A stretch of 50,477 nucleotides of DNA from a virus (Duplodnaviria > Caudoviricetes): IMG/VR virus record IMGVR_UViG_3300020166_000003, positions 1 through 50,477 of that record. The stretch is one strand, 5' to 3'. The notes beneath the pieces are model-generated. The model did no database searches. It was not told the DNA's origin and saw only the letters and a program-made list of their open reading frames with translations. Both the position numbers and the translations under genes were made by a program. The first letter of the stretch is position 1; every line of letters begins with the position of its first letter. This document shows, piece by piece, positions 2,252 to 41,863 of this stretch.

Positions 2252-4481
2252 TCCTATTCTCAAACCACTGGGCTTTAGCTTGTTCCTTTTTAGGATTATC
2301 CCTAGCTCCAGCCCAGTGATGTTTGGCATAGAACTTGCCTTTATCTACCTTGCCTTTTGCTATATCATCTAAAGGCGCGGCACCTTCTGATAGATCTGCT
2401 AGAAATATAGAGTCCTGTACTTCTTCTGGCAATGTACTGAAGTCTACGTTCTTCTTGGCGATTAGACTATCTAGCTCAGGAGTATCTTCTACTCCGTGGC
2501 GGGCTAAAAACCTTTTAGTCCTTTTAAGGGCTGTATTATTTGCACCACTTCCCCCTGCTACATCCTCTAGTTCAAACTGATACTTCCCTCTTCCTGCTCC
2601 TCTTGCTTCCCCGTCTATAATCTGTACAGCTTTGGGGTCGTTATTAGATTCTACATGGGCAACATCATCGCTATACTCTTTAATCCTTTCTACTTCTTCA
2701 TCGGTGTAACCACGCTTGTCTTTAATAGCCTTTAGTATCTTATCTGATAGTCTTGATTTCTTCACTGGTCTCCTTTTGATTGTGCCTTTCTGTGAGGTTG
2801 CGTTAGAATTTAAGCCCATTAGGTCTTGTCTTGTGGGTACTCCGTCAACAACCAAACCTCCTGAGCTATAGTTAGATCTAGGATCATTGCGATCCATTTT
2901 AGAGTTCCATATAGTTTTGAATTGAGCATTATCAAATGCAATGTAGCTCTCTCCTTTACTATCAGGTAGGGATTTCTCAGCGGCGTTCTTATACCTTATG
3001 CCATCAAAGCCCAAGTCCTTTAGCCAGTTTCTAAATTGCATGTTCATCTTCTGGTTAAACAAATCTCCCATTATCTCATCTAAGTACTCACCTTGACTTG
3101 GATTCTCGAACTGTCCTGCAGGGGCTGTAGGGTCTTTAAACCTAACAAACCTTTCATTCTTATCCCTTGCAAATAGCTTAGCTTCTTTATAGAGTTTGTC
3201 CATCTGCTTCTCTGCTTTCTTTGTCAGCTCTACTCCACTTCTCTGCACGGCAAGTTTAATCCGAGCAACAGTAGGTGCATCCTTTAAACGCCTTCCCATG
3301 TGCCAACCCAGCTTCATGTCGTCCATGTCTAAGGGCTTCTTTATTTGGACATAACCTTTAGTAATAGCATAGGGCTTAAGATCCATCACGCCCTCGCTCC
3401 CTGCAAGCCCTTCTCCAAAGCCTATACGGACTTGTTGATCCTCATACCTACCTAAGTAGTTCTCAAAGTAATTATCAATCTCAGGCTTAGTCACGGTGAG
3501 CTTGCCTTCATTAGCAGCAAAGGCTCTAAACCTATCGCCGTCCATCTGTGTTGCAATGATACTAGCTACTTGGGCTTCATCTTCACCTAGATGTATACCT
3601 ACCTCACGGGCCAGCACACCAGCTATGTCAGCATCTAAATCATGGTGGTCTGCCGTGGCTCTGTATACAGGTATCTTAACCTCAGAAGGTCTTAGAAACT
3701 TAGCAACATTATACTCCTTCTCCTCTTCTGCTTCCATGCGCTTTATGGCACTGGTCTCATGGAAGGGAGTAGGTATGTCCGTTTTGTTTTTATTAGGAAA
3801 GTTCTCTACTACTTCTCGTATAAACTTACCGTACTCTGCGTCCCGCGCCAGTCTCTGTACTAGCATAGCCCCTACTTTCTCTGAGCCTTCTTTGCCTAAG
3901 CGGCTGAAGGCTTCTGGGTGTAGTTTTTTAAGGGAGTCAGTAACATAGCCTGAGAGCTTCTGGGCTTGCCAGTCATTTAGGGGTTCGCCCTTAAACTTTT
4001 TCTCGTCTGGGAGTTCTCTGGGCTTAAACTTAGAATGGAAACTTCTGATGTCTCCATAAATCTCATTGATGTTATGGACTATAGAGCCGTCAGGGTCTAC
4101 CTCGTCAGCAAACACACTAGAAAGCTCAAAGGTTTCTCGCTCTCCTTCGGTGTAGCCCCTCCACTTCCCAAACTTCTCCCCGCCTATCTTGCCTTCAGGG
4201 GATTTCGCTATCATTTCACTTTTCAGCATGTCGTTCTTTTCTCTAAGGTAAGCCTCCACATTTAAAAGTATGTGCGCTGAACCCTCGTCCGTATCAAGGA
4301 CATCGTTTAGAGTATTCTTGTCAGAACCCTTCACATTTTTATAGGGCTTGGATACAGCCTCCACTAATCTTTGATTGGCTTCCTCTAAAACATCTTTAGA
4401 AATAAAACCATCTAAAGCATCATAAGCTGTATCAGTAAGCTCTTTAACTATTGAGTGGGTTACTTTTCCTAGTCCTGCCAT
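2238..4481 (-). CDS. Internal virion protein with ADP-ribosyltransferase-like (ART-PolyVal-type) domain and C-terminal lysozyme/transglycosylase-like domain
   Basis: IPVYRAT...GIHLG...YVQIKKPL...LGFDGIRYKN...SYIAFDNAQFKT pattern; C-terminal AHVESNNDP...GRGKYQF; last gene of virion module. Confidence 0.6.
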   Translation of the reverse strand: MAGLGKVTHSIVKELTDTAYDALDGFISKDVLEEANQRLVEAVSKPYKNVKGSDKNTLNDVLDTDEGSAHILLNVEAYLREKNDMLKSEMIAKSPEGKIGGEKFGKWRGYTEGERETFELSSVFADEVDPDGSIVHNINEIYGDIRSFHSKFKPRELPDEKKFKGEPLNDWQAQKLSGYVTDSLKKLHPEAFSRLGKEGSEKVGAMLVQRLARDAEYGKFIREVVENFPNKNKTDIPTPFHETSAIKRMEAEEEKEYNVAKFLRPSEVKIPVYRATADHHDLDADIAGVLAREVGIHLGEDEAQVASIIATQMDGDRFRAFAANEGKLTVTKPEIDNYFENYLGRYEDQQVRIGFGEGLAGSEGVMDLKPYAITKGYVQIKKPLDMDDMKLGWHMGRRLKDAPTVARIKLAVQRSGVELTKKAEKQMDKLYKEAKLFARDKNERFVRFKDPTAPAGQFENPSQGEYLDEIMGDLFNQKMNMQFRNWLKDLGFDGIRYKNAAEKSLPDSKGESYIAFDNAQFKTIWNSKMDRNDPRSNYSSGGLVVDGVPTRQDLMGLNSNATSQKGTIKRRPVKKSRLSDKILKAIKDKRGYTDEEVERIKEYSDDVAHVESNNDPKAVQIIDGEARGAGRGKYQFELEDVAGGSGANNTALKRTKRFLARHGVEDTPELDSLIAKKNVDFSTLPEEVQDSIFLADLSEGAAPLDDIAKGKVDKGKFYAKHHWAGARDNPKKEQAKAQWFENRIRRR

Positions 4482-7400: not shown

Positions 7401-8533
7401 CTTGTGTTGAACAAATCTAATTGCTCTGCAAATTCACCTGCCTGTTCTTCAGGGTAAGCATCCTCGAAAAAATCAGCCTGTCTCCTGCCCCTAGATTTCT
7501 CTTCTGGACTTATGCCAGCCTTGAATAAATCTCTTTGCAGTGGAGTAGTAGGCTCAGGAAACATATCCATTTGCCTAGATACATTAACTACACCAACATC
7601 AACATTATCTAACGCCCTGCTAAACACAGGGTCGTCCAGTAGACGGTTAACCACCTTGCCCATAACTCTAGGGCTTTGTTCTGTAATCAGAGGAGCTACC
7701 GCCGCCTTACGCATGAAGGGGGATGCCGCTACCTGTAAGACTTTACCAGCCCCTACTCCGAGACCAAAGGCCCCTAAGGTTTCTGGAATACTTATCTCGT
7801 CTTTAAGGCCTATAGCAACGTCACGCTTCTGTTGTATTGCGGAATCTGCGGCAGCCCACGATCCTGTGACCAGAGGGAAACCAAACTTACTGGTCATGTC
7901 TCCCGCCGCTAGGCCTCTCACAGCCATCTTCTTTGCTACATTCTTAGCAGCAGCAAAGGCTCCTGCCTGTGCGGTACCCTTAACGCCCGCCATAGCCCCT
8001 GCCTGAGCCGCAGTACTTCCACCGCCTGTCGCCAAGCCCAAGAGTACGCCGATAATAGTTTCAGGTGCTGTTATAAGATCAGTACCAATATCAACAAACG
8101 CTGACCATTGCTCATTCCCGCCCCTAATAACTGCTCTGTCAAAAGACTCGCTAAGTTTAGCGGCTTTTAGTTTAATGTGCTCAGGGGCATTTTCAAGTCT
8201 GCCTGCTTCTGATAGCGCAGTAAGCATCCTGTACCTACTATCACGCATATCTTCTACGGGGTCAAAACTCCCCCAGCTACTCCCTGCTTCCATCCACGCA
8301 TCTTTAGTGGTCTCTTGAGAGGCTAGATAGTCGAATACTTCTTTACTGTCTTCCCAGTTGTCAGCACGCCACTCATCCATTGTAGGGATATGCTCAATCG
8401 TAGGGGGTCTGGAGAGTCCAGAGGTTTCAGGAAGCCATCCCTTCTCGACGTACTCAGCTTTTTCAGCATCCATAGCATCAAGTTCTGCTAAGCTATATAC
8501 ATGAGGATCGTACTTACTTCTTTGTTCAGCCAT
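4481..8533 (-). CDS. Large internal virion (ejection) protein, 1350 aa
   Basis: Size, position after tail/lysis genes, Gly/Ala-rich hydrophobic N-terminal segments, helical C-terminal half. Confidence 0.7.
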   Translation of the reverse strand: MAEQRSKYDPHVYSLAELDAMDAEKAEYVEKGWLPETSGLSRPPTIEHIPTMDEWRADNWEDSKEVFDYLASQETTKDAWMEAGSSWGSFDPVEDMRDSRYRMLTALSEAGRLENAPEHIKLKAAKLSESFDRAVIRGGNEQWSAFVDIGTDLITAPETIIGVLLGLATGGGSTAAQAGAMAGVKGTAQAGAFAAAKNVAKKMAVRGLAAGDMTSKFGFPLVTGSWAAADSAIQQKRDVAIGLKDEISIPETLGAFGLGVGAGKVLQVAASPFMRKAAVAPLITEQSPRVMGKVVNRLLDDPVFSRALDNVDVGVVNVSRQMDMFPEPTTPLQRDLFKAGISPEEKSRGRRQADFFEDAYPEEQAGEFAEQLDLFNTSTGKSSLVEAAATFADKVSPQASRQITEQMDLLKQVAAKKPIKDQLDLFSPEELSSRRLELTEQMDAFEAFVKETGDEDLMKQLDMFKDMAKPKKGVEPKEQLELFRTKLLPEERPNLKTQMDIEDVVPAEQATPEMVDETVDYLRKLTESISMESESIDKAIASVTAAMEEALSVGKRLFPEDIKKLKEIRDYVARNGGGEETLDLVSEKIATVTSRGASANATTPTKTRGVGPDGESPTDGPDGPRPPEAPAPPSGSVAAVSEEGVEGEVGGILNRLGSRATSTILWGKQPGFLTAYAKISAMARELQSAISPEFAKVWSGAQDYIPPSLFEVYKSYSGNWMGKYMSMVEPIAKEGLRNKTLGKMDAEANDLVHRAMRGENVGNKMANTIGANLKNLYSEIGDKLLSNGLIREKLPNYVHRMWHREHIMANPKKFKGLLVSEGQAADMAEADAIFKSMMDKANQLDDSNMSTQFFSKVRTLDKIKDDSKFAEFFEQDVRVTMASYVHQASKAIAKKERLGVSNLDEFMERIANPIIDQVREKAGEKLSIKEYEALQRHLEALYKNVTSEGLDRFSPAGEMVSNSYGLATRVSLLGMATVTSLTEFMLNVPKAGFRNSIKGLAAASRSGFKILTGDTEGILKNNFGLTAKEARRELYENGLALEHGLMSISNRLVGDELTSEGMNKVTNAFFKLTLLDQWTKFVQSTSFVTGKQLIASNLEALAAHGDRPMTRRMTQKVNELKELNVNIEEGIRWHNAGQSTDDDFYGVVKRGAARYTDEVILQPSSMSGQKPALYNNPKTAWMFQLMTYPTAFTNTVLKGTAKKLYRDKSPEGAARVVAAGVIMTEMQRVLNYYRSEGASEEDGEGMAYLRAIERWGAFTTAGDQFRRAAEASKYIGNPAPYLGIPFGVAGSDVGTIWSQGPVTFLGQRLFPGYTNPLVISREGKQKYKRMLREIDKKLAGENDKYTKRNY

Positions 8534-8535
8534 TA

Positions 8536-10554
8536 TTAGTTTCCTTGTTTTATTGTCATAAAGCCTGCCTCTCGCATAAGCTCTTTAAGCTCGGCTAATT
8601 TGATAGTGGCTGGATTAATACCTCGCTCCTTCAGGCGCTCAGTCACAAACTGTATATGAAGCTCTGGCGGATACCTATTGGCTCCTGTTTCGTTCAGTTC
8701 CTGTGCGTTCTTTATAAGAGCTTTGATAATGTCAGGATCTTTTATCTCGTACTTCTCATTGTCTTCGGGAGCCTTAGGTTCCTCGACAGGCAAAGGCTTT
8801 TGAATCATAGATTCCTCCTTAGAGAGCTTGCGTACATTACCGCTAGGCTTTTTAGCTGGAGGTTTACTTTCTGAATCCCCTGCTCGTCTAGCCGAAGGTA
8901 AGCTTTGCACTCCATAGCTTCCTAGTCCTGCTCTATACGGGTGCTCATCCGCAACAGCTGGAAGACCTCCATATTTCTCAACTTTTCTGGCTATAGTTTC
9001 CAAAAGCCCATACTTTCTCGGTAGGTAAGGTACGCCAGCCTGAGTAGCAATCTTTTGCGCGAGGGTGCCTGCTATTTCCTCGTCCCTATTAGGGTCTTCG
9101 GGGTGAGGGTCGCCCGTTAGAACTCGAAAAGTCTCAGGCACTTTATCAAACATGCTCTTGCTATCCATGTAATTTATTAACTTACTCACCTTATCTTTGC
9201 TCATATTGCTTACTAGTCTAGCTAGAATTGTCTTATCTGTAATAGCAATTAGAAGATCCTTCTCATAAGCCTTATACATTTCTGGATTAGAGTTTTCCCT
9301 AGGGTTGTTTATTTTTATTGTGTCCAAAGCCATCCAACTTAGTAGAGGATTTTCCGTAGCCCCATTGCCTATTAAACTAGTGCCCACGTCAGAATCTTCA
9401 TCTGTTATCCACTTTTCATTTTCTATATGGGAAGTCGCTGCTAGCTGATCGGCAAATTCTTTAGGGAGACCACGAGATCTTGTTAGTGTATAGGATAGGT
9501 TCACAGCAGGAGCCAGTGTATTCTTTGTAAAAGCCTCCGTTACAGCTTTATTTGCATTATTGCTTTCGCCTAAGCCTGCGTCCGTAAACTGCTTTAGATA
9601 TATCTCTCTCCCGTCATCACCAGTTGAGCCATAGATAACCGCTGCCATTTCATCTACCTGATCTTTTTTAGGTACAAAGGCTACGGCGGTTGGGTCTAAT
9701 GGGCTGTCGCCTAGGTTGCCACCCTTATTATCTGCATAGCCTATGAAGCTGCCATCGGCCCCGTTTATCACCACTTGTCGTGTAACGGTAGATACCTCTC
9801 CCGTCCTTCGGTCTACCTGCTTTACATCTCTAAGTTCTACTTTAGTATTCCTAGGCATTCCGTCAGGATAGAGCCTTGAGAGATTTGCCGCCGAGACCTT
9901 AGGGACTCCTACACCTTTAAGTTCTTCATAGGCCTCTAAGTACGGGTTGTACTTAGCCATTATAGCTTCTAAGTCATCGTCGTCGTTCCCTGTTACTAGA
10001 CCTGTAAGCCATGAGCCTACAGTACTGGGCTTTAATTTTCTTAGTTCAGTCTCATAGAAATTAGGATCGCCGCCTGAAAGAGTCTCAATATTCCCTGCAA
10101 CTTTTAGTCTCTGAGCTAAAAGGGATTCGCGCTCCTCAGCTATCCTCCGAGCGACTGGACTTATCTGAGCCTCTATCATATCTAAGTCAACGCCCACACC
10201 ATCAGCATCAAAAGCAGCACCCGCGTTTTCTAAAATCTCCTGCTTGGCTTGGTTGAAATAATAATCAGGATCTTTTTGAAGCTTCTCCAAGGCCGCGTTA
10301 TCCCTAGAAATATCCTGCATAACACCGTTAATTTTAAGTCTGTTGCTAAGGTTAAATTCATTATTGACAAACTTATCCGCACGATCTCTCAAAACCGCAT
10401 TGCCGATGTGACCTCCTATAGACGCCAAAGCTTGGTATTTCTGCGCCCTTTTCTTCCTGTTCCTAAGAACCTTGTTGCGCTCTTTCGTCTGAGCCATTAA
10501 GGAATTGGCTAACTTGTCAATCCCTTCTGTCTGTGCACCATAATCAATAGCCAT
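8536..10554 (-). CDS. Putative internal virion protein, 672 aa
   Basis: Position within ejection-protein block; no recognisable motif. Confidence 0.55.
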   Translation of the reverse strand: MAIDYGAQTEGIDKLANSLMAQTKERNKVLRNRKKRAQKYQALASIGGHIGNAVLRDRADKFVNNEFNLSNRLKINGVMQDISRDNAALEKLQKDPDYYFNQAKQEILENAGAAFDADGVGVDLDMIEAQISPVARRIAEERESLLAQRLKVAGNIETLSGGDPNFYETELRKLKPSTVGSWLTGLVTGNDDDDLEAIMAKYNPYLEAYEELKGVGVPKVSAANLSRLYPDGMPRNTKVELRDVKQVDRRTGEVSTVTRQVVINGADGSFIGYADNKGGNLGDSPLDPTAVAFVPKKDQVDEMAAVIYGSTGDDGREIYLKQFTDAGLGESNNANKAVTEAFTKNTLAPAVNLSYTLTRSRGLPKEFADQLAATSHIENEKWITDEDSDVGTSLIGNGATENPLLSWMALDTIKINNPRENSNPEMYKAYEKDLLIAITDKTILARLVSNMSKDKVSKLINYMDSKSMFDKVPETFRVLTGDPHPEDPNRDEEIAGTLAQKIATQAGVPYLPRKYGLLETIARKVEKYGGLPAVADEHPYRAGLGSYGVQSLPSARRAGDSESKPPAKKPSGNVRKLSKEESMIQKPLPVEEPKAPEDNEKYEIKDPDIIKALIKNAQELNETGANRYPPELHIQFVTERLKERGINPATIKLAELKELMREAGFMTIKQGN

Positions 10555-10555
10555 C

Positions 10556-11155
10556 TTATTGCTCCTCAGTAGGGTCTAGTAAGCTCTCGGGGCTAGCTTC
10601 GGGTTTAGTAATCATACTTTCTATTTCTTCTTTCATGGGAAGCGCGTTAACCTTTTGTTTAAGCTCGTCCGTCAGCTTGCCTCCTGTAGGCATAGTAGTA
10701 AACTGCTTACTTCTACGCTGTAGTGCCTTGAGTTGGACTTCTTGGTTCTCGGCTACAACACCGTCCTCGTCGTCCTCATCATCGTCTTCTTCACCGTCAT
10801 AGATCTTAGCCTCAATGCCTGCCCTTTCAGCAAGAGCAAGAATCATATAGGCTACAGGCTCCCCTAATAGGAGCATGAGGTCAGGAGTCCAAAGGCCTTT
10901 AGCAAACCCAGAGAACGTAACAACTTGGACTATCTCCATAACTGTGCGCCCGTTCATCAACTCGCCCATGAGCTGAACGTAAGTTTCCTCGTCTAGCAAG
11001 TTCCCAAAGATATACTCCGAGGCCTCATGGAGGGAAACAAATTGAGGAGGGGACTCAAAAGGCCTTGGGTTGTCAGGGTCTGCCGTAAGGCTCTGGCCTG
11101 GAATTGCCCGTGGTGCTTCTGTAAGCTGCTTTAAGTATTTAGGATCTTGTTCCAT
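10556..11155 (-). CDS. Hypothetical virion-module protein, 199 aa
   Basis: Coupled ORF; IPGQSLT..P..PRPFESPPQF N-terminus and acidic patch. Confidence 0.65.
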   Translation of the reverse strand: MEQDPKYLKQLTEAPRAIPGQSLTADPDNPRPFESPPQFVSLHEASEYIFGNLLDEETYVQLMGELMNGRTVMEIVQVVTFSGFAKGLWTPDLMLLLGEPVAYMILALAERAGIEAKIYDGEEDDDEDDEDGVVAENQEVQLKALQRRSKQFTTMPTGGKLTDELKQKVNALPMKEEIESMITKPEASPESLLDPTEEQ

Positions 11156-36083: not shown

Positions 36084-36527
36084 ATGGCTACAAAGAAACA
36101 AATACTAGCAGTAATGGGTGAGCAGTATGCAGAAAAAGCTAACGAGCCAGCAAGCACTGGACAGTTGTTTAAACTTGGCGACATGTACGGTCAAGTATGG
36201 TTGGCTGATGCAGACAAGGACTTGAAAGCCTTTAGGTATCAAGCACGTAAAACCTTCGGCTCTATCATCTGCAAAGTAAACGGCGCGGCGACTAAGCCTT
36301 TGACACAGTACGATGTAGCTAAGGCTGTCGAGGACTTTGAAGCTGGCAAACTCAAGATGCGTAAGGAGTACTTAGACTTGTGTATAATAGACGTTAACGC
36401 TTTGGAAGTTCGTAAGCCTAAGACAAGCCGCAAGGTGAGCAAGCCTAGTAGCGATGTCGAGGCTCTTACTGCGATGATCGAAGCACAACAGGCTCAGATT
36501 GCTGAGTTGATTGCCGCTAACAGTTAG
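36084..36527 (+). CDS. Early protein, paralog of 33708-34295 without the long repeat
   Basis: Shared PASTxQL, GQVWL, FxYQARKxFGxIxCK, IEAQQAQIAxL blocks. Confidence 0.85.
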   Translation: MATKKQILAVMGEQYAEKANEPASTGQLFKLGDMYGQVWLADADKDLKAFRYQARKTFGSIICKVNGAATKPLTQYDVAKAVEDFEAGKLKMRKEYLDLCIIDVNALEVRKPKTSRKVSKPSSDVEALTAMIEAQQAQIAELIAANS

Positions 36528-36534
36528 TAAATCC

Positions 36535-36568
36535 TAGGGGGCTGGCGAGGACTAGCCCCCTACAGTTT
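36535..36568 (+). terminator. Hairpin/terminator after 36527
   Basis: TAGGGGGCTGG-6 nt-CTAGCCCCCTA then CAGTTT. Confidence 0.6.
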
Positions 36569-36588
36569 AATAATTTTGGAGAAACGCA

Positions 36589-37080
36589 ATGTTAAGCACA
36601 GTACAGAAACATGAGCTGAAGGTATTACTCAGCCAAATAAAAGAGTTAGGAGATGAGTGGGATTTACACTATAAGTATCTTAGCAACTTAACTGACAGTA
36701 ACCTATATGTATCTTCGACATCTTCGTGTACTAACGTAGACGAAATGTTTACATGGTCTGATACTCCTCAGGGGCATGACTTTTGGTCGCCTCTTAACTC
36801 TGCCCATAAGGAGGAATACGGCAATGAGATATATGCTTATGCAAAAAAAGCCGATGATGCCAAATACATGGTGGATCACTATAGTCTTATTGCTAGGGTA
36901 CACGTTTTAGATAAGGAGGCGGCAAGCTATATGATTAAGGAAGCGCCTAAACTTGAGGGCTTTAAGCCTTCTAACCGTTTACGCTATTGCTTTGAGTATA
37001 ATTCAACACCTCAAGGCTGTGAGTATTGGACAGACATAGCCCTAAAACTCCGCGCCCTACCACACAACGCACTCTATTAA
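36589..37080 (+). CDS. Hypothetical protein with internal duplication
   Basis: GGAG RBS; FTWSDTPQGHDFW and FEYNSTPQGCEYW. Confidence 0.8.
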   Translation: MLSTVQKHELKVLLSQIKELGDEWDLHYKYLSNLTDSNLYVSSTSSCTNVDEMFTWSDTPQGHDFWSPLNSAHKEEYGNEIYAYAKKADDAKYMVDHYSLIARVHVLDKEAASYMIKEAPKLEGFKPSNRLRYCFEYNSTPQGCEYWTDIALKLRALPHNALY

Positions 37081-37101
37081 AAACATTGTGCCGAATTGTT
37101 G

Positions 37102-37130
37102 TTGACAGTGGACTGACTGCCATGTACAAT
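37102..37130 (+). promoter_or_regulatory. Sigma70-type promoter of the Ubl operon
   Basis: TTGACA (37102-07), 17 nt, TACAAT (37125-30). Confidence 0.8.
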
Positions 37131-37240
37131 GCACCACATCGAGACACCGACATTTACTTTACTTATTAAATGTCACGACAGAACACTGGGATTTGCCCTT
37201 TGTATTTTACTTTTAATTTTAATTTAACGGAGCTTTATAT

Positions 37241-37462
37241 ATGTATACTATCGTAATCGCAGACATCGCCAATTCTTCTAGTGACGACCTTAAGCAAGTC
37301 CAAGTTGAGTCAGGTTCTACAGTAGGGCAAGCACTTGCTCAAGCTGGTGTGACCTTATATCCTGGGCAGAAGGTAGCCTTGAACGGTGTAAATACTACAC
37401 TCGAAAGCCCTATCAATGTTACTGGCATGTTGTCTGTTACTGGCGAAGCTAAAGCAGCCTAG
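37241..37462 (+). CDS. Ubiquitin-like beta-grasp protein (ThiS/MoaD-like), C-terminus -GEAKAA
   Basis: 73 aa; VQVESGSTVGQALAQAG...KVALNG...L...I.....LSV beta-grasp pattern; GGAG RBS; E1/JAB neighbours. Confidence 0.8.
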   Translation: MYTIVIADIANSSSDDLKQVQVESGSTVGQALAQAGVTLYPGQKVALNGVNTTLESPINVTGMLSVTGEAKAA

Positions 37463-37497
37463 TAATTAACCCACAATAACTAAGAGAGGACTCTGGA

Positions 37498-38781
37498 ATG
37501 ACTTTTAAATTAGACGAATACATGAGTAGGTACTATGGTGTTACACCTAGCAGTGTTTACCAACATTCATTTGGGATTGCCCAACAAATAGTCAAGTTAG
37601 AGTCCCAACTTAGGGAGCTAGAGGGTAGAGAAGCTGTAGGTGTTTTGCTTATTAAGGAGCAGTACGCCGCGTATAAACTCCTACCCCTTAGTGACCCATT
37701 AAAATGGAGATGGAAAGAATGTGTGTCTAGGCTTATATCACAGTATAAGCTGGATGTAGACACATTAAGGGAACAAAGCCTTAGACTGCCCCAGCTCAAG
37801 GCTAAGTTAGCTATGGCTACCCCATCACCAGAAAACGAACCGAATTATATTAGTGCCGAGAAGTATGCAAAGGCGTTTGAACAGTTACCAGTATCACTAG
37901 CCCTTGAAGGGGTTTACATTAAACCTACCAAGCCTAATAGAGTTTGGTTGGTTATTACTATAGGCGACCATGTTATAAGACCTGCTAGTAATTTTTTAGA
38001 AGCCCTAGAGGAGGGGCGAGATTTTACAAAGAAAGGCTGGGATCTCACGACTATAGCGCAGTTTGCTCAACAAGGTATCCCTAGAAAGCCTATAACCTTT
38101 GCCATCAATGTGATCTTTAATGACCAAGACGACATGGCTACTGACGTAGAACTTGGAGTATTAACAGGGCATCCCACTAACATTAACTCTAATGAGGCTA
38201 TATTTTGGGACGGTGATAAAGTTTATGAGACTACCGAGATTGAAGAAGGGAGTGAGTATGTGTGTGGCGCCCCAAGCTGTGATGCTACTGTAGTATTCCA
38301 CCCACACATTAGGACTGAGCTATCCGAGTATGAAATATATAGTAGGAGGATGGCATGTTTAGGATCTTACATGACCCCGATGGCTAAAGCAATTAGGGAT
38401 AACAAGCCTACAGGACTTGGGCTATACCTTATAAATTATTTCCAAGAATTTGACCTTACAGATACATGGGGTAGGTTTGGACTTGCACGAATGTTCCGAC
38501 CTAGTGACTTGGAACCTGTAGTCGAGACACCTAAGGTAGAGGCTGTACAAGACTGGCGCCCTTCCTTTATATATCACCAAGACACTAAGATTCTAACCCT
38601 ACTCAACCAGCCCACAGAACAGCAAACGTATGAATTATACGGAAGCTATGGGGATGGTCTTATGTTTATTAGGGAGGGAAGCACCTCAGATAAGGAGGTA
38701 GACTTATCTGATACCGTATATACTTGGATATGGCTTAGAATTGTACCCCGCTATGGGAAAATAGTAACACTTAAACTTTAA
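37498..38781 (+). CDS. Prokaryotic E2-like (UBC-fold) conjugating enzyme with N- and C-terminal extensions
   Basis: FHPHI (H268,H270)...ACLG (C287) mirrors the E2 HPN...CL active site; gene context. Confidence 0.65.
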   Translation: MTFKLDEYMSRYYGVTPSSVYQHSFGIAQQIVKLESQLRELEGREAVGVLLIKEQYAAYKLLPLSDPLKWRWKECVSRLISQYKLDVDTLREQSLRLPQLKAKLAMATPSPENEPNYISAEKYAKAFEQLPVSLALEGVYIKPTKPNRVWLVITIGDHVIRPASNFLEALEEGRDFTKKGWDLTTIAQFAQQGIPRKPITFAINVIFNDQDDMATDVELGVLTGHPTNINSNEAIFWDGDKVYETTEIEEGSEYVCGAPSCDATVVFHPHIRTELSEYEIYSRRMACLGSYMTPMAKAIRDNKPTGLGLYLINYFQEFDLTDTWGRFGLARMFRPSDLEPVVETPKVEAVQDWRPSFIYHQDTKILTLLNQPTEQQTYELYGSYGDGLMFIREGSTSDKEVDLSDTVYTWIWLRIVPRYGKIVTLKL

Positions 38782-38793
38782 CAGAGGATAACC

Positions 38794-39513
38794 ATGACAG
38801 ACTTACATTCTTTATCAGGCTTAAGGTCTTTAGAAATTATAGACTTTGAGAAATACGAACATATACCTATTCATATTGTAGGGCTTGGGGCAGTAGGCTC
38901 TAAAGCCTTTGAGCAATTAGTATGCTTAGGGGCAAGGCACTTAGTATTGCATGACTTTGATACTGTCGAGCATCATAATACTCACAATCAACTCTTTGGA
39001 GTGGGACATGTGGGCATGACTAAAGTGGACGCTTGTTTAGATTGGGTCAAGTATAAGTATGGCGACCAGTATGTAGGTAAAATTGAAACCTTTAACCACA
39101 AAGTTACTGAGGACACTGAGTTAGTTGGTGCGGTATTGATGTGTGTTGATACCTTTGATGGCAGGAGAGCAGTAATACAAGCTTCTATAGCCTCTCAAGG
39201 TGTTGGGATAGTGGTCGAGGGGCGGTGCGCTCCTAAGTTCTTTGAAGTACGGACTATCAATCCTTTCAATACTGAGCAAGTCGAAGGGTTCTTAGGTTCT
39301 TTAGGAGACGATAGCACTCCCGATACTCATGTATCTATTTGTGGTGCGCCTATCTCCTTTTCTCCTGTCATGTCAGCTTGTGGCATAATCATGGTGGGGC
39401 AGTTAATTAGCGCACTAAAAAATGGAGGGGTAGCCCCATCACAAGAACACTTAAACATTTTTATGCAGCCATTACTAATGGTTGGCGGTCAATCTTTAAC
39501 AGGAGAAGTATAA
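38794..39513 (+). CDS. E1-like ThiF/MoeB-family adenylyltransferase
   Basis: IVGLGAVGS, LHDFDTVEHHNTHNQ, GMTKV, CVDTFDGRR; candidate catalytic Cys183 (VSICG). Confidence 0.92.
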   Translation: MTDLHSLSGLRSLEIIDFEKYEHIPIHIVGLGAVGSKAFEQLVCLGARHLVLHDFDTVEHHNTHNQLFGVGHVGMTKVDACLDWVKYKYGDQYVGKIETFNHKVTEDTELVGAVLMCVDTFDGRRAVIQASIASQGVGIVVEGRCAPKFFEVRTINPFNTEQVEGFLGSLGDDSTPDTHVSICGAPISFSPVMSACGIIMVGQLISALKNGGVAPSQEHLNIFMQPLLMVGGQSLTGEV

Positions 39514-40430
39514 TGGGAACACCTAAGGCAGAAGCACTACCAATTAAAGACGCAATCATACCTGACGTATGGTTCTCTACGTTAGCATGGGCTAAGATAC
39601 AAGACTTAATAACCTCACCACATAAAAAATCTAACGAGATTACTTGGTACGGTGACATTGAAAAGACTGATGTGGGAGACTTATACATTAACGATGTCTT
39701 TGTGCCAACCCAAGAAGTTACAAGGGTGTCAACGTCTATCGAAGATTTTAATGTAATTGTACCTGAGGCAGTAGAAGCGGGGCTTAACCCTATGAAACTT
39801 AAGGCTTGGTTTCATCTACATCCTAACGGCATGTCCACTAGCCCTAGCAGTGTTGATGTGGAACAAACTGATGAATACCTAAAGACTTGGAGCTATATCC
39901 TTAGAGGTATCATAAACAACGAGGGTGAGTTTCAATTAGATTACTTTGATAAGGATGCGGGGTTACAGTATAGTAATCTTAGACACTTCATTGACTTTAG
40001 TGATGTGTTAGACAGCGAAGAATTTGAAAAGGTTATAAAAGAACGTGTCACCATCAAAACTCCCGTCTCTCTTGCTAAGAAAGCAGGCTCTACCTACAAC
40101 ACTTACAGCTATGATTACGCTCAAGACAGTAGAGGCAACCAAGACACTGTATATGTAGGGCTACTGGATACTAGGGCTGCCCATGTAGATATATTAGATG
40201 CTTTTGTAGAGGGCGACAGTACTCTAGTAGAGACGGCAACCCACGTTACTACAATGTCCCTTGCAGAAGCTATTGAAAACGGGAGGCTCAAGACTACACC
40301 TTCTACTTGGGAGGCTTTCAAACGTAAGATAGCTATGACTCCTGAATTTTTTGATGTCATGTTCCCAAGTGTTTCTGAGCAAATGAATAAGAGGATTAAA
40401 AATGATAAGACTAAACGCAGTAGTAAGTAA
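39513..40430 (+). CDS. JAB/MPN+ (JAMM) metallopeptidase
   Basis: E42 ... WFH101-L-H103-PNGMSTSP-S112-SV-D115; TAATG coupling to E1. Confidence 0.88.
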   Translation: MGTPKAEALPIKDAIIPDVWFSTLAWAKIQDLITSPHKKSNEITWYGDIEKTDVGDLYINDVFVPTQEVTRVSTSIEDFNVIVPEAVEAGLNPMKLKAWFHLHPNGMSTSPSSVDVEQTDEYLKTWSYILRGIINNEGEFQLDYFDKDAGLQYSNLRHFIDFSDVLDSEEFEKVIKERVTIKTPVSLAKKAGSTYNTYSYDYAQDSRGNQDTVYVGLLDTRAAHVDILDAFVEGDSTLVETATHVTTMSLAEAIENGRLKTTPSTWEAFKRKIAMTPEFFDVMFPSVSEQMNKRIKNDKTKRSSK

Positions 40431-40764
40431 AATCTATGGTGATGGTAGTCGTATCAGGGCTATAGTCTTGAATACTGCAAGTAGGGACACCATGACAGTT
40501 AAGACTGAAGATAATTGTATTCTCGTATGGAGGAGGAGCGATACCGAGTATGTAGGTACACTAGATCCAGAAACTAGGGTACGTGTTAAGAATATGTACG
40601 AGCCTAACTATAAAGTAAGAAGGCTTATAACTATAGTGCCTAGCAGGATGTATAGTGGTAAGCTTTGTATGACTAGAAGCCCTAAGGGTGAGATAGAAAC
40701 TTTCTCGTACATGAATTTCTTTAAGGGCATTAAGGCTCTGGAGGACAGCGATGGACAATCCTAA
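40402..40764 (+). CDS. Hypothetical protein
   Basis: GAGGA RBS; overlaps JAB 3' end. Confidence 0.7.
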   Translation: MIRLNAVVSKIYGDGSRIRAIVLNTASRDTMTVKTEDNCILVWRRSDTEYVGTLDPETRVRVKNMYEPNYKVRRLITIVPSRMYSGKLCMTRSPKGEIETFSYMNFFKGIKALEDSDGQS

Positions 40765-41086
40765 ATATATTCAAGCCCTTAAAGAGGGCAAGGTTCCTAT
40801 GGACTACCTACCCTATACTTGTTTTGCTGAGGACTCATTGTGTCATAAGCATGGGGCAGATAAGTATGGCATCAGGAACTATAGGATCAGTAAAATATTA
40901 GCCAGTACATACGAAGGGGCTATCATGCGACACTTTGTAGCTTGGGCTAATGGTGAGGACTTAGACCCTGACAGTGGGCTTAGTCACTTGACACACTTGA
41001 GGGCTTGCTGTGCTGTAGTCTTAGACTCGCAGAAGCATGGAACTTTCTTAGACGATAGGCTTAGAGCCGAGGAGAAAAAGGTATGA
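40751..41086 (+). CDS. dATP/dGTP diphosphohydrolase-like protein (DUF5664-type)
   Basis: HGADKYGIRNY...YEGAIMRH..AW..GEDLDPDSGLSHL.H..AC motif. Confidence 0.8.
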   Translation: MDNPKYIQALKEGKVPMDYLPYTCFAEDSLCHKHGADKYGIRNYRISKILASTYEGAIMRHFVAWANGEDLDPDSGLSHLTHLRACCAVVLDSQKHGTFLDDRLRAEEKKV

Positions 41087-41580
41087 GCGTATACTTTACA
41101 AGTGATTTACACTTAGGACATTTAATGGCTTCAGACAAACGAGGCTTTAACGACATTAGAGTACACGATGAAACTGTCTTAGCTTCTATTGAAGTTATTG
41201 ACGATAAGAGAATGGTGCTGTATATTCTAGGCGATGTTGCCATGAACCCAGCAATGCTATCGAGACTCAAAGACTTTAAGTGCCGCAAGATATTAGTGCG
41301 TGGCAACCACGATGTCTATAAACTTTCTGAATACTTGGAGGTCTTTGAGGAGATACACGGGTTCGTTAAGTACAAGGGTATGTGGCTGAGTCATTGCCCT
41401 ATCCACCCGCAAGAAATGTTCAGGGCTGAGGTTAATGTGCATGGTCACATACATAAGGATGCCATGACTAAGCCTCTAGGATTCCCTTACATCAATGTAA
41501 ATTGGGACTTCTGGCATAGACCAATAAGTCTTGACGAGGTTAAGGTGTTAATAGAATCACGATCAGATGGGTTAGTGTGA
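41083..41580 (+). CDS. Calcineurin-like metallophosphoesterase
   Basis: SDLHLGH, LGD, GNHD, SH, HGHIH motifs. Confidence 0.9.
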   Translation: MSVYFTSDLHLGHLMASDKRGFNDIRVHDETVLASIEVIDDKRMVLYILGDVAMNPAMLSRLKDFKCRKILVRGNHDVYKLSEYLEVFEEIHGFVKYKGMWLSHCPIHPQEMFRAEVNVHGHIHKDAMTKPLGFPYINVNWDFWHRPISLDEVKVLIESRSDGLV

Positions 41581-41632
41581 TGTACGACTACAACCACACG
41601 ATTAAAACTAAACGTATCAATGGAGTAATACA

Positions 41633-41863
41633 ATGAATTACAAAAACATTCCAGGACAAATAATACAGATTGATTCTGACGAGCAATTTCAGCTGTTCCC
41701 CTTGCCGCTATCAAGACGCGACCAGCTTGCGGGTATGGCTATGCAAGGATTGCTGGCTGGAAATTTTTATAGTAAAGACCCAGAATTAGTAGCCGAAGTA
41801 GCCTGTGACCGCGCAGACGCACTAATTGCAGAGCTAGACAAAGACCACAAAGTCGCTATGTGA
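41633..41863 (+). CDS. Hypothetical phage protein
   Basis: GGAG RBS; LSRRDQLAGMAMQGLLA...ADALIAEL pattern common in small phage proteins. Confidence 0.75.
   Translation: MNYKNIPGQIIQIDSDEQFQLFPLPLSRRDQLAGMAMQGLLAGNFYSKDPELVAEVACDRADALIAELDKDHKVAM

Follow-up and report, generated by a model that had tools for sequence, protein, structure and literature searches.

A phage-borne ubiquitin-like gene cassette with a candidate E2 in a marine podovirus and related loci

Introduction

Operons that group a ubiquitin-like protein (Ubl) with E1, E2 and peptidase partners are known from bacteria, where the Bil (10.1101/2023.09.04.556158), type II CBASS and Bub (PMC11601596) systems are described as anti-phage weapons in the literature examined. 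Here we report a four-gene cassette of this kind in a phage, the IMG/VR record IMGVR_UViG_3300020166_000003, whose full length of 50,477 bp was analysed and is referred to below as the window. The cassette (37241-40430, plus strand) encodes, in this order, a 73-amino-acid (aa) Ubl, a 427-aa E2-like protein, a 239-aa E1 and a 305-aa JAMM (JAB) peptidase. As judged from profile matches of the Ubl, E1 and JAMM proteins, from their conserved residues, from the linkage of the genes and from the phage setting, this is a real phage-borne Ubl cassette, and we put at about one in two the probability that it constitutes a phage-encoded ubiquitin-like protein-conjugation pathway used in the phage's own infection.

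The closest parallel is Bil, in which the same four-part list (BilA, Ubl; BilB, E2; BilC, JAB; BilD, E1) stands in one operon; the conservation of a Cys in both the E1 and the E2-like protein of the phage family means that thioester chemistry would be expected here. The two differ in setting, since the present cassette is phage-borne and lies in replication modules whereas Bil lies in bacterial defence islands, and they differ in sequence: only the E1 matches a PADLOC model of Bil (BilD, 3.9e-5), no Bil Ubl, E2 or JAB model is matched, and the E1 is here a 239-aa single-domain ThiF-type protein. According to a 2006 survey (PMC1779556), the classical His that precedes the Cys is missing from the E2 of the Bil-type operon (row 6d), whereas the E2-like family described here keeps an H-P-H in front of it.

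Type II CBASS, with Cap2 and Cap3, resembles the cassette in having a JAMM partner and through its E1 part, the Cap2 'E1-E2' models giving the best PADLOC match to the phage E1 (1.6e-10, at their E1 part) and Cap2 structures being found by the E1 profile (6.5e-8). The phage cassette, however, has no CD-NTase and no E2-E1 fusion, and it includes a free beta-grasp modifier. When plasmids were searched with the E1, the sole matches were a CBASS Cap2 locus and a single record without annotation, and the architecture of the plasmid Cap2/Cap3 locus (L006) differs from that of the cassette. Bub is likewise a diverged prokaryotic E1/E2/Ubl pathway with a peptidase, and BubCD is matched by the E1 profile (1.8e-7), but it reportedly works through oxyester (Ser) intermediates and has a serine protease as its peptidase (PMC11601596). 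In the phage family, both candidate catalytic residues are instead invariant Cys and the peptidase is a predicted JAMM metalloenzyme.

Likenesses also extend beyond bacterial defence. With the UBC (UQ_con) E2s of eukaryotes and Asgard archaea, the E2-like protein shares H-P-[N/H]-[ILV], a Cys with a Gly two residues on, a helix leading to an acidic or Pro-rich turn, and a loop between motif and Cys whose length varies in both families. It differs from them in having no direct match to the UQ_con hidden Markov model (HMM), in having His for Asn (or N-P-H in the gut group of relatives described below), in being 2-6 times longer than the Asgard UBC proteins compared (136-204 aa) and in its coiled-coil-looking N-terminus, the likeness being one of sequence only. 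The UBA5-UFM1 pair offers a minimal single-domain E1, UBA5, to which the phage E1 is closest (8.8e-14) and with which it shares a Cys at the aligned position, but the Arg of the N-x-x-R is Asn in the phage protein; ThiF/MoeB-ThiS/MoaD pairs share with the cassette a ThiS/MoaD-like modifier. The cassette departs from both in that its modifier ends in A-K-(G/A) plus a tail, not in G-G, and in that the phage has no sulfur-acceptor enzymes.

The only phage association of a Ubl with a JAB that we found in the literature is that of TAPI (Ubl) with TAPK (JAB plus NlpC/P60) in lambdoid and T1 phages (Iyer et al. 2006, PMC1779556). As described in that survey, these genes have no E1 or E2, belong to the tail module and do not serve conjugation, whereas the present cassette combines an E1 and an E2-like protein within a replication module. 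No description of a phage-borne Ubl-E2-E1-JAB set was found in the literature covered, which excluded subscription journals and supplements, and the supplementary homologue lists of Bil and CBASS studies may include some. What appears to be new is the phage-borne four-part Ubl set; the parts list, as in Bil, was already known.

Many eukaryotic viruses manipulate ubiquitin, and a conserved phage-borne counterpart would show that bacterial viruses run ubiquitin-like tagging of their own, reaching as far as the abundant crAss-like phages of the gut.

Results and Discussion

E1, Ubl and JAMM peptidase

The E1 gene (38794-39513, plus strand) encodes a predicted adenylating enzyme of the ThiF/MoeB/UBA5 type. 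Its assignment to the ThiF family, made in an initial sequence-only reading of the window without database searches, was confirmed by a match to Pfam ThiF (PF00899; cut-off 28.1 bits) over residues 19-211, which scored 66.7 bits (E 2.2e-18). A family profile of 13 members found UBA5 as its best match in the PDB, followed by MccB (1.8e-9), MoeB (1e-8), Cap2 and BubCD (at the values given above) and PaaA (5.8e-7), with UBA6/UBA1, ThiF and TcdA also among the matches; the best NCBIfam matches of the E1 were ThiF models, all far under their cut-offs. The sequence-only reading had described the nucleotide-binding motifs as intact and Cys183 as a lone candidate for catalysis. The former description holds for G30, G32 and G35 of the GxGxxG (44/44 distinct relatives), D54 (44/44), K77 (43/44) and D119 (42/44), which we take to be nucleotide-binding, acidic and ATP/Mg-site residues, but it does not hold for the Arg of the N-x-x-R, which is replaced by Asn65. 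The latter needs qualification, as the E1 has other Cys residues, but Cys183 (39340-39342, plus strand) is the sole invariant one (13/13; 43/44 relatives). In the HMMER alignment it falls on the Cys of the UBA5 stretch 'CAASLPTT', presumably the catalytic Cys of UBA5.

The Ubl gene (37241-37462, plus strand) encodes 73 aa ending in ...SVTGEAKAA, and its earlier recognition as a beta-grasp protein was borne out by profile-profile comparison. When the family alignment (78 columns) was set by hhalign against 30 ThiS/MoaD sequences, all above the Pfam cut-off and drawn from 41 proteobacterial genomes, it gave a probability of 91%, an E of 1.1e-6 and a score of 35.7, a score reached by none of 200 column shuffles (maximum 16.4) and by none of four unrelated alignments (10.9-15.3). 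We regard the prediction of a ThiS/MoaD-type beta-grasp protein as confirmed on this basis. Direct Pfam matches were sub-threshold (DUF348 'G5-linked ubiquitin-like', 1.8e-4; Ub-RnfH, 0.067), and the Pfam ThiS model itself gave no match to the 73-aa protein.

The C-terminus of the Ubl is conserved up to a point. Among 11 aligned Ubls A70 and K71 are invariant and position 72 is Gly in ten, with Ala in the window, after which the tails vary (N, NS, A, AKGA or a 79-residue extension); the window's own tail, A70-K71-A72-A73 (37448-37459, plus strand), is the presumed activation or trimming site. Where the Ubl is fused to the 79-residue C-terminal extension after A-K-G-A, in two loci (L008 and L009, 4688-5140), cleavage would therefore be needed for activation. 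The Ubl-like part of the gut and crAss groups forms the N-terminus of proteins of ~200-225 aa. Because of such tails and fusions, a peptidase that frees the C-terminus would be needed in many members of the family, and this need fits the constant presence of the JAMM gene. Xanthomonas phage PhiXhv-12 (L004) has a 140-aa open reading frame (ORF; 1811-2233) that ends in GG and is a Ubl by position only; an HPH...CLG protein and then the E1 follow it. Elsewhere a single E1/JAB set is accompanied by a tandem pair of Ubl genes, at 3470-3688 and 3771-3986 of L033 (Allochromatium humboldtianum DSM 21881) and at 454-663 and 730-939 of L032, a metagenome-assembled genome (MAG) labelled Thorarchaeota.

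The last of the four genes (39513-40430, plus strand) encodes a predicted JAMM/MPN+ metallopeptidase. The metal-binding and catalytic motif of JAMM enzymes is E...H-x-H-x(7-8)-S-x-x-D, and the sequence-only reading was right to call it intact here: E42, H101, H103, S112 and D115 are present in 46/46 distinct relatives. A JAB family profile of five sequences matched Rpn11 (4.3e-4), BRCC36 (1.4e-3) and CSN5 (0.2) in the PDB with HxH...S..D aligned, which together with the motif confirms the 305-aa protein as a JAMM peptidase at the sequence level. Its catalytic domain occupies residues ~20-160 and is followed by a C-terminal extension of ~150 residues without a family match. The protein has no Pfam match, Prok-JAB giving none even at E<=10.

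An E1, a ThiS/MoaD-like protein and a JAMM peptidase might equally be the parts of a sulfur carrier, in which the E1 would make a Ubl thiocarboxylate, the JAMM protein would trim the tail and the HPH...Cys protein would act as sulfur relay or as the acceptor enzyme in making a modified nucleotide or cofactor. In sulfur-carrier pathways such as QbsE/QbsD and CysO/Mec+, a JAMM enzyme trims the C-terminal tail of the carrier. The detectable homology of the Ubl to ThiS/MoaD, the ThiF models that lead the NCBIfam matches of the E1 (far below their cut-offs) and the nucleotide-metabolism neighbours (a dATP/dGTP diphosphohydrolase domain and a by-eye phosphoesterase in the window, dCTP deaminase in L033) all speak for such a role. 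The complete genome, however, gave no match to Rhodanese, ATP_bind_3 (TtuA/NcsA-type), MoaE or ThiG at E<=1 in a scan that detected its positive controls, in agreement with the sequence-only reading, which had noted the lack of sulfur-pathway genes; host enzymes could serve in their stead. Furthermore, the Ubls of the family end in A-K-G plus a tail or in A-K-A-A, not in G-G, the nearest solved E1 is the protein-conjugating UBA5, and the conserved partner bears a UBC-like HP[N/H]...C motif, in register. On balance, we consider a sulfur-carrier role quite unlikely.

The E2-like protein family

The second gene of the cassette (37498-38781, plus strand) encodes the 427-aa E2-like protein. Its N-terminal ~125 aa are helical and coiled-coil-looking, with weak profile matches to coiled-coil proteins only; a conserved core with the HPH...C-x-G motif spans residues ~128-348 and the C-terminal part is variable. 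The candidate active site, comprising H268-P269-H270, 16 residues and C287 (38299-38358, plus strand), is present as the sequence-only reading had stated and proved invariant in 18 aligned relatives, as are P226, G289, D322 and G325. Both subfamilies, the marine one to which the window belongs and that of the gut group, have the motif [HN]-P-H-[ILVM]-x(4-17)-C-x-G in all aligned relatives, and it was seen in 21 ORFs adjoining JAB or E1 and in 16/16 gut-group proteins. Beside E1 or JAB, a protein with the motif, 300-900 aa in length, is nearly always present. The two subfamilies are homologous by hhalign (97.7%, E 2.4e-12, 132 columns).

By direct search the relatives of the 427-aa protein are few, with one at 75% identity in a word-indexed search and four more at 26-30% in an exhaustive HMMER search. 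No family match was found in Pfam, PADLOC, PHROGs or NCBIfam, no megablast or tblastn match in GenBank phages, and nothing in viral contigs or metagenomes when loci were sought with the protein or its alignments. The Atlas model of the protein is poor (predicted local distance difference test, pLDDT, 0.43) and a structure search of the Atlas with that model was uninformative; one relative has no model there. A feature search of the ESM Atlas lists as a neighbour, at score 0.90, a viral cluster with Prok-E2_D assigned to 15% of its proteins, which we treat as a lead only.

Comparison with UBC proteins required a reference set. UQ_con matches, all above cut-off, occur in 108 of 151 Asgard genomes, and the 30 best of them plus 20 paralogues gave 50 sequences. 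Aligned by hhalign, the phage core scored 18.8 (E 0.046) when 12 sequences were set against the 30 best, 22.2 (E 0.011) when 27 were set against all 50, and 20.8 (E 0.015) for a merged build of 42 against all 50. In all three builds the top local alignment matches HPH to HPN, Cys to Cys and Gly to Gly, and beyond the helix that comes next the acidic turn of the phage core coincides with the N-P-x-D-P turn of UBC. The highest score among 200 column shuffles was 20.5, below the 22.2 of the 27-sequence build, and seven unrelated alignments scored 10.5-16.5 with the merged 42-sequence profile, compared with 20.8; for that profile a null of 0/100 shuffles is unreliable, and the clean null is the one of 200 shuffles for the 27-sequence build. 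For calibration, the same method gave only 28.0 (E 0.0024) when UQ_con was compared with Prok-E2_D, an accepted E2 family, so that hhalign is barely able to join known E2 families. Nor is the 16-residue spacing between HPH and Cys in the window an objection to a UBC domain, since in Asgard UBC paralogues the catalytic Cys follows HPN at a distance of 11-15 residues.

Among the Asgard UQ_con paralogues (L086-L105), the best-scoring group has C-[VLI]-G right after the loop, like the C-L-G of the phage proteins. The E2-like protein of PhiXhv-12 (L004 2313-4991) is 892 aa long with very Cys-rich N- and C-termini, which might bind zinc.

Distribution, linkage and gene order

The cassette is a widespread phage family and not the one-off that the sequence-only reading had supposed. 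We assembled 53 related loci (L002-L005 and L007-L055, some of them near-duplicates), fetched via JAB or E1: the JAB profile yielded 2 IMG/VR and 23 metagenome loci and the E1 profile 26 loci from genomes and MAGs, while tblastn of GenBank phages with the E1 led to jumbo phages of Xanthomonas and Erwinia, crAss-like phages and one further virus. E1 and JAB are each found in 49 of the 53 loci and the E2-like gene in 47; 41 hold all three, and 21 of these also have a free-standing Ubl by HMM. As for the 12 loci without one of the three, L007, L008, L026-L029, L032 and L047 are contigs of 1-3 kb or cut at the relevant end, the JAB of L005 was missed by the HMM and is visible by motif, the E1 of L013 lies outside the fetched part, L052 is the twelfth, and no JAB was seen beside the E1 in L004 (PhiXhv-12).

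Three gene orders were observed: Ubl-E2-E1-JAB in the window and L031, Ubl-123aa-E1-JAB-E2 in the marine group, and Ubl fusion-E2-JAB-E1 in the gut group. That gene content is kept while the order changes argues for a functional unit. The additional ORF of ~123 aa between Ubl and E1 in the marine group (L015 4827-5198, L019 1828-2199, L011 4717-5205) has no PHROG match and no counterpart in the window.

In GenBank, 45 phage records carry a crAss-type E2-like gene, among them those of the cultured crAss001, of DAC15 and of the PhiCrAssBcn series, and in crAss001 the set comprises gp79 (Ubl fusion), gp78 (HSH...C-x-G), gp77 (JAMM) and gp76 (ThiF). Five crAss-type E2-like sequences aligned with the core in register at a score of 29.6 (E 0.0015), where the same query scored 27.8 against an unrelated E1 alignment; the placement of the crAss set with the window family rests on synteny and motifs. 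GenBank labels the E1 'thiamine biosynthesis protein', the JAB 'metalloprotease domain' and both the Ubl and the E2-like protein hypothetical. The present comparison defines a sizeable E2-like family that has no curated model, which is why pipelines leave its genes as 'hypothetical' and name the accompanying E1 after thiamine biosynthesis.

Wherever they were examined, the neighbours of the cassette are replication or nucleotide genes: a primase-helicase and a polymerase in the window, a primase and a uracil-DNA glycosylase in crAss-like phages, a topoisomerase in a Xanthomonas jumbo phage, a primase, dCTP deaminase and exonuclease in the Allochromatium locus (L033), and a polymerase and an endonuclease in the Pseudohongiella locus (L031). 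The last two are phage-like regions of bacterial genomes, which thus also carry the cassette. Its recurrence in many unrelated phages suggests that ubiquitin-like protein tagging is used not by bacteria alone but by phages too.

Apart from the cassette genes there is next to nothing in common between the window and the related loci, and the cassette therefore moves as a unit; the closest cultured relatives of the carrier phage have no match to its E1 or E2-like protein. Transfer between unrelated phages that share only these genes and not their neighbours, absence from the closest cultured relatives and presence in the phage-like regions of L033 and L031 are also what might be expected of a Bil-like cargo for defence or superinfection exclusion, whose tagging would be aimed at the structural proteins of rival phages or of other prophages of the host. 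All characterised bacterial Ubl-E1-E2-JAB systems named in the literature examined act against phages. Nevertheless, the cassette sits inside the replication modules of apparently lytic phages (crAss-like, HMO-2011-type and jumbo), not in moron or lysogeny regions, the crAss E2-like gene with its 45 records looks like a core gene of the lineage, and the PADLOC models of BilA, BilB and BilC find no match. We judge defence cargo to be unlikely and favour a role in the phage's own programme, given where the cassette sits in the genomes of lytic phages, among replication genes, and given that it is found throughout the crAss-like lineage.

A possible conjugation pathway

We infer a conjugation pathway from sequence, its chemical steps, E2 fold, trimming site and targets alike. 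In this pathway the JAMM peptidase would trim the short tail that follows A-K-(G/A) of the 73-aa beta-grasp protein. The ThiF-type E1 would adenylate the freed C-terminus, capture the Ubl on Cys183 as a thioester and pass it to Cys287 of the 427-aa E2-like protein. The coiled-coil N-terminus and variable C-terminus of the latter would take the place of an E3 and pick the target lysine; since a RING or HECT-like partner is not conserved, we propose that target choice falls to the E2-like protein. The JAMM peptidase could also remove the attached tag. Since the cassette is probably transcribed with genes of replication and nucleotide metabolism, the targets are probably host or phage proteins of early or mid infection. 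The uses suggested in the sequence-only reading, namely to tag host proteins, to jam Bil or CBASS or to modify the virions of rival phages, would be speculative roles for such a pathway.

Several observations weigh against this pathway. The window Ubl ends in Ala-Ala and lacks a C-terminal Gly-Gly, and ten of the 11 aligned Ubls have A-K-G followed by 1-79 residues. In the E1, Asn65 occupies the position of the UBA5 N-x-x-R Arg in the HMMER alignment, and Asn is found there in 41/44 relatives; this change may point to altered chemistry or to a different way of holding ATP. For the E2-like protein, no direct match to an E2 model (UQ_con, Prok-E2_A to E) was obtained at E<=10 with the window protein, five relatives or 12 core domains, PF14461 and PF14460 find no match anywhere in the genome, and neither the PADLOC BilB model nor the E2 part of the Cap2 models matches it. 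There was no PDB match with the single sequence, and three profiles gave coiled-coil or chance matches only. The profile-profile signal between the core and UBC is weak (probability 3.8%), and an unrelated JAB alignment scored 19.8 against the query that gave 22.2. Comparison of the phage core with Prok-E2_D showed no similarity (15.1, out of register, with a thin profile from 4/401 genomes), and the gut subfamily alone and the crAss-type set alone gave no UBC signal by hhalign.

These points bear most directly on the claim of the sequence-only reading that the 427-aa protein is an E2. Context and motif uphold it, in that a conserved family with an invariant HPH...C-x-G stands beside E1 and JAB, but no E2 model matches and the UBC alignment attains only E 0.011. 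To our minds, the core probably adopts a UBC fold, and it is somewhat more probable again that the protein, as a Cys enzyme, takes over the Ubl from the E1. The protein could be something other than an E2, whether another Cys enzyme or a substrate or scaffold of the E1-JAMM-Ubl trio, with the E1 processing the Ubl C-terminus into a non-tag in the manner of MccB or PaaA. The matches of the E1 profile to MccB and PaaA, the lack of an E2 model match, a marginal UBC similarity with one unrelated control close behind, and the Arg-to-Asn change of the E1 as a hint of unusual chemistry would be in keeping with this. The best local profile alignment nonetheless falls on the UBC catalytic motif in three independent builds, HPH, Cys and Gly are invariant over 18 sequences with the motif kept in 16 of the second subfamily, and the small protein, an entire beta-grasp domain, is more than a short peptide. 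An explanation without an E2 is in our estimation very unlikely.

The conjugation reading can be taken further, tentatively. It is possible that at least four unrelated lineages, namely marine HMO-2011-type podoviruses, crAss-like phages (crAss001 gp76-79), Xanthomonas and Erwinia jumbo phages, and gut Firmicutes phages or prophage-like elements, share an old phage-specific pathway whose E2 would be a classical HPN-type UBC enzyme tagging host or phage proteins in replication. The active site of this E2 might then be closer to those of Asgard and eukaryotic E2s than to those of the E2s of bacterial defence. If this were true, ubiquitin-like tagging would be a weapon on both sides of the conflict between phages and bacteria, and UBC-type E2s might have a reservoir or vehicle in viruses. 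Cultured carriers make bench tests possible, among them the Bacteroides phages crAss001 and DAC15, the PhiXhv and Ep phages of Xanthomonas and Erwinia, and the phage-like region of Allochromatium humboldtianum DSM 21881.

The carrier phage

The window is a whole virus record with direct terminal repeats and is rated complete. That it is a phage genome, as the sequence-only reading had held, is supported by a PHROG scan, which identified ribonucleotide reductase, large terminase, portal/adaptor, major head protein and tail fibre, as well as a primase-helicase, a family-A DNA polymerase and a Cas4-like exonuclease. The complete genome gave no match to a tyrosine integrase. Its terminase shares 64-69% identity with the terminases of Pelagibacter phages HTVC115P, HTVC103P and HTVC104P and ~50% with those of roseophages and Puniceispirillum phage HMO-2011, which places the carrier among the HMO-2011-type marine podoviruses. 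The cassette lies among the replication genes, on the early/middle strand.

The cassette stretch recurs near letter-for-letter in 20 public runs from 13 studies, all marine, of which seven runs (four studies) are not flagged as possible assembly sources. Three DNA runs compared with the stretch showed 0 differences in the compared pieces, and no RNA run is listed among the public runs that carry it. In run X15 the C-terminal half of the JAB gene (39641-40430) also occurs as a second variant, with 79 differences in 651 nucleotides (nt); its insertions and deletions cancel (+1 at 40057 and -1 at 40062; +1 with +2 near 40378-40387), so that the frame is kept, and it resembles an 89%-identical relative (P0004).

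Expression signals and neighbouring genes

All four ORFs lie where the sequence-only reading had placed them, on the plus strand, with gaps of 35, 12 and -1 nt between them. The ribosome-binding sites also mentioned there were found 5-9 nt before the four ATGs (GGAG for the Ubl, then GAGAGGA, AGAGGA and AGGAGA). The near-consensus promoter is a candidate sigma-70-like site, TTGACA-17-TACAAT (37102-37130, plus strand), that matches the consensus at 11/12 positions and ranks top of 20 promoter-like sites in 36400-41700; shuffled versions of this region have a mean of 12.4 such sites.

Contrary to the view that the unit ends at 40430, the next three genes overlap serially by -29, -14 and -4 nt. 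The first, an ORF of 120 aa at 40402-40764 whose initial 29 nt are shared with the end of the JAB gene, is without a family match in Pfam or PHROG and has its sole relative among the compared loci on a near-identical contig (L007). The second (40751-41086) encodes a protein with a dATP/dGTP diphosphohydrolase N-terminal domain (Pfam 1.5e-21, best PHROG 1.6e-34), and the third (41083-41580), outside the first PHROG scans, is a 165-aa ORF that is phosphoesterase-like by eye only.

Four further observations concern single residues or loci. Residues 61-66 of the E1 (38974-38991) read H-N-T-H-N-Q, where the family has H-N-L-A-N-Q and UBA5 has A-N-M-N-R-L, and His61 is kept in 41/44 relatives. A small ORF at 1825-2073 of the window is the sole non-cassette gene common to the window and the marine loci L015-L019 and L022 (3.3e-9). 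On the chromosome of the Pseudohongiella MAG (L031), a transposase gene (7791-8834, minus strand; PHROG 1.8e-29) directly follows the cassette. Finally, a 127-kb IMG/VR contig (L002) carries a reverse transcriptase gene (9675-10847; RVT_1, 4.9e-20) ~400 nt downstream of its E1.

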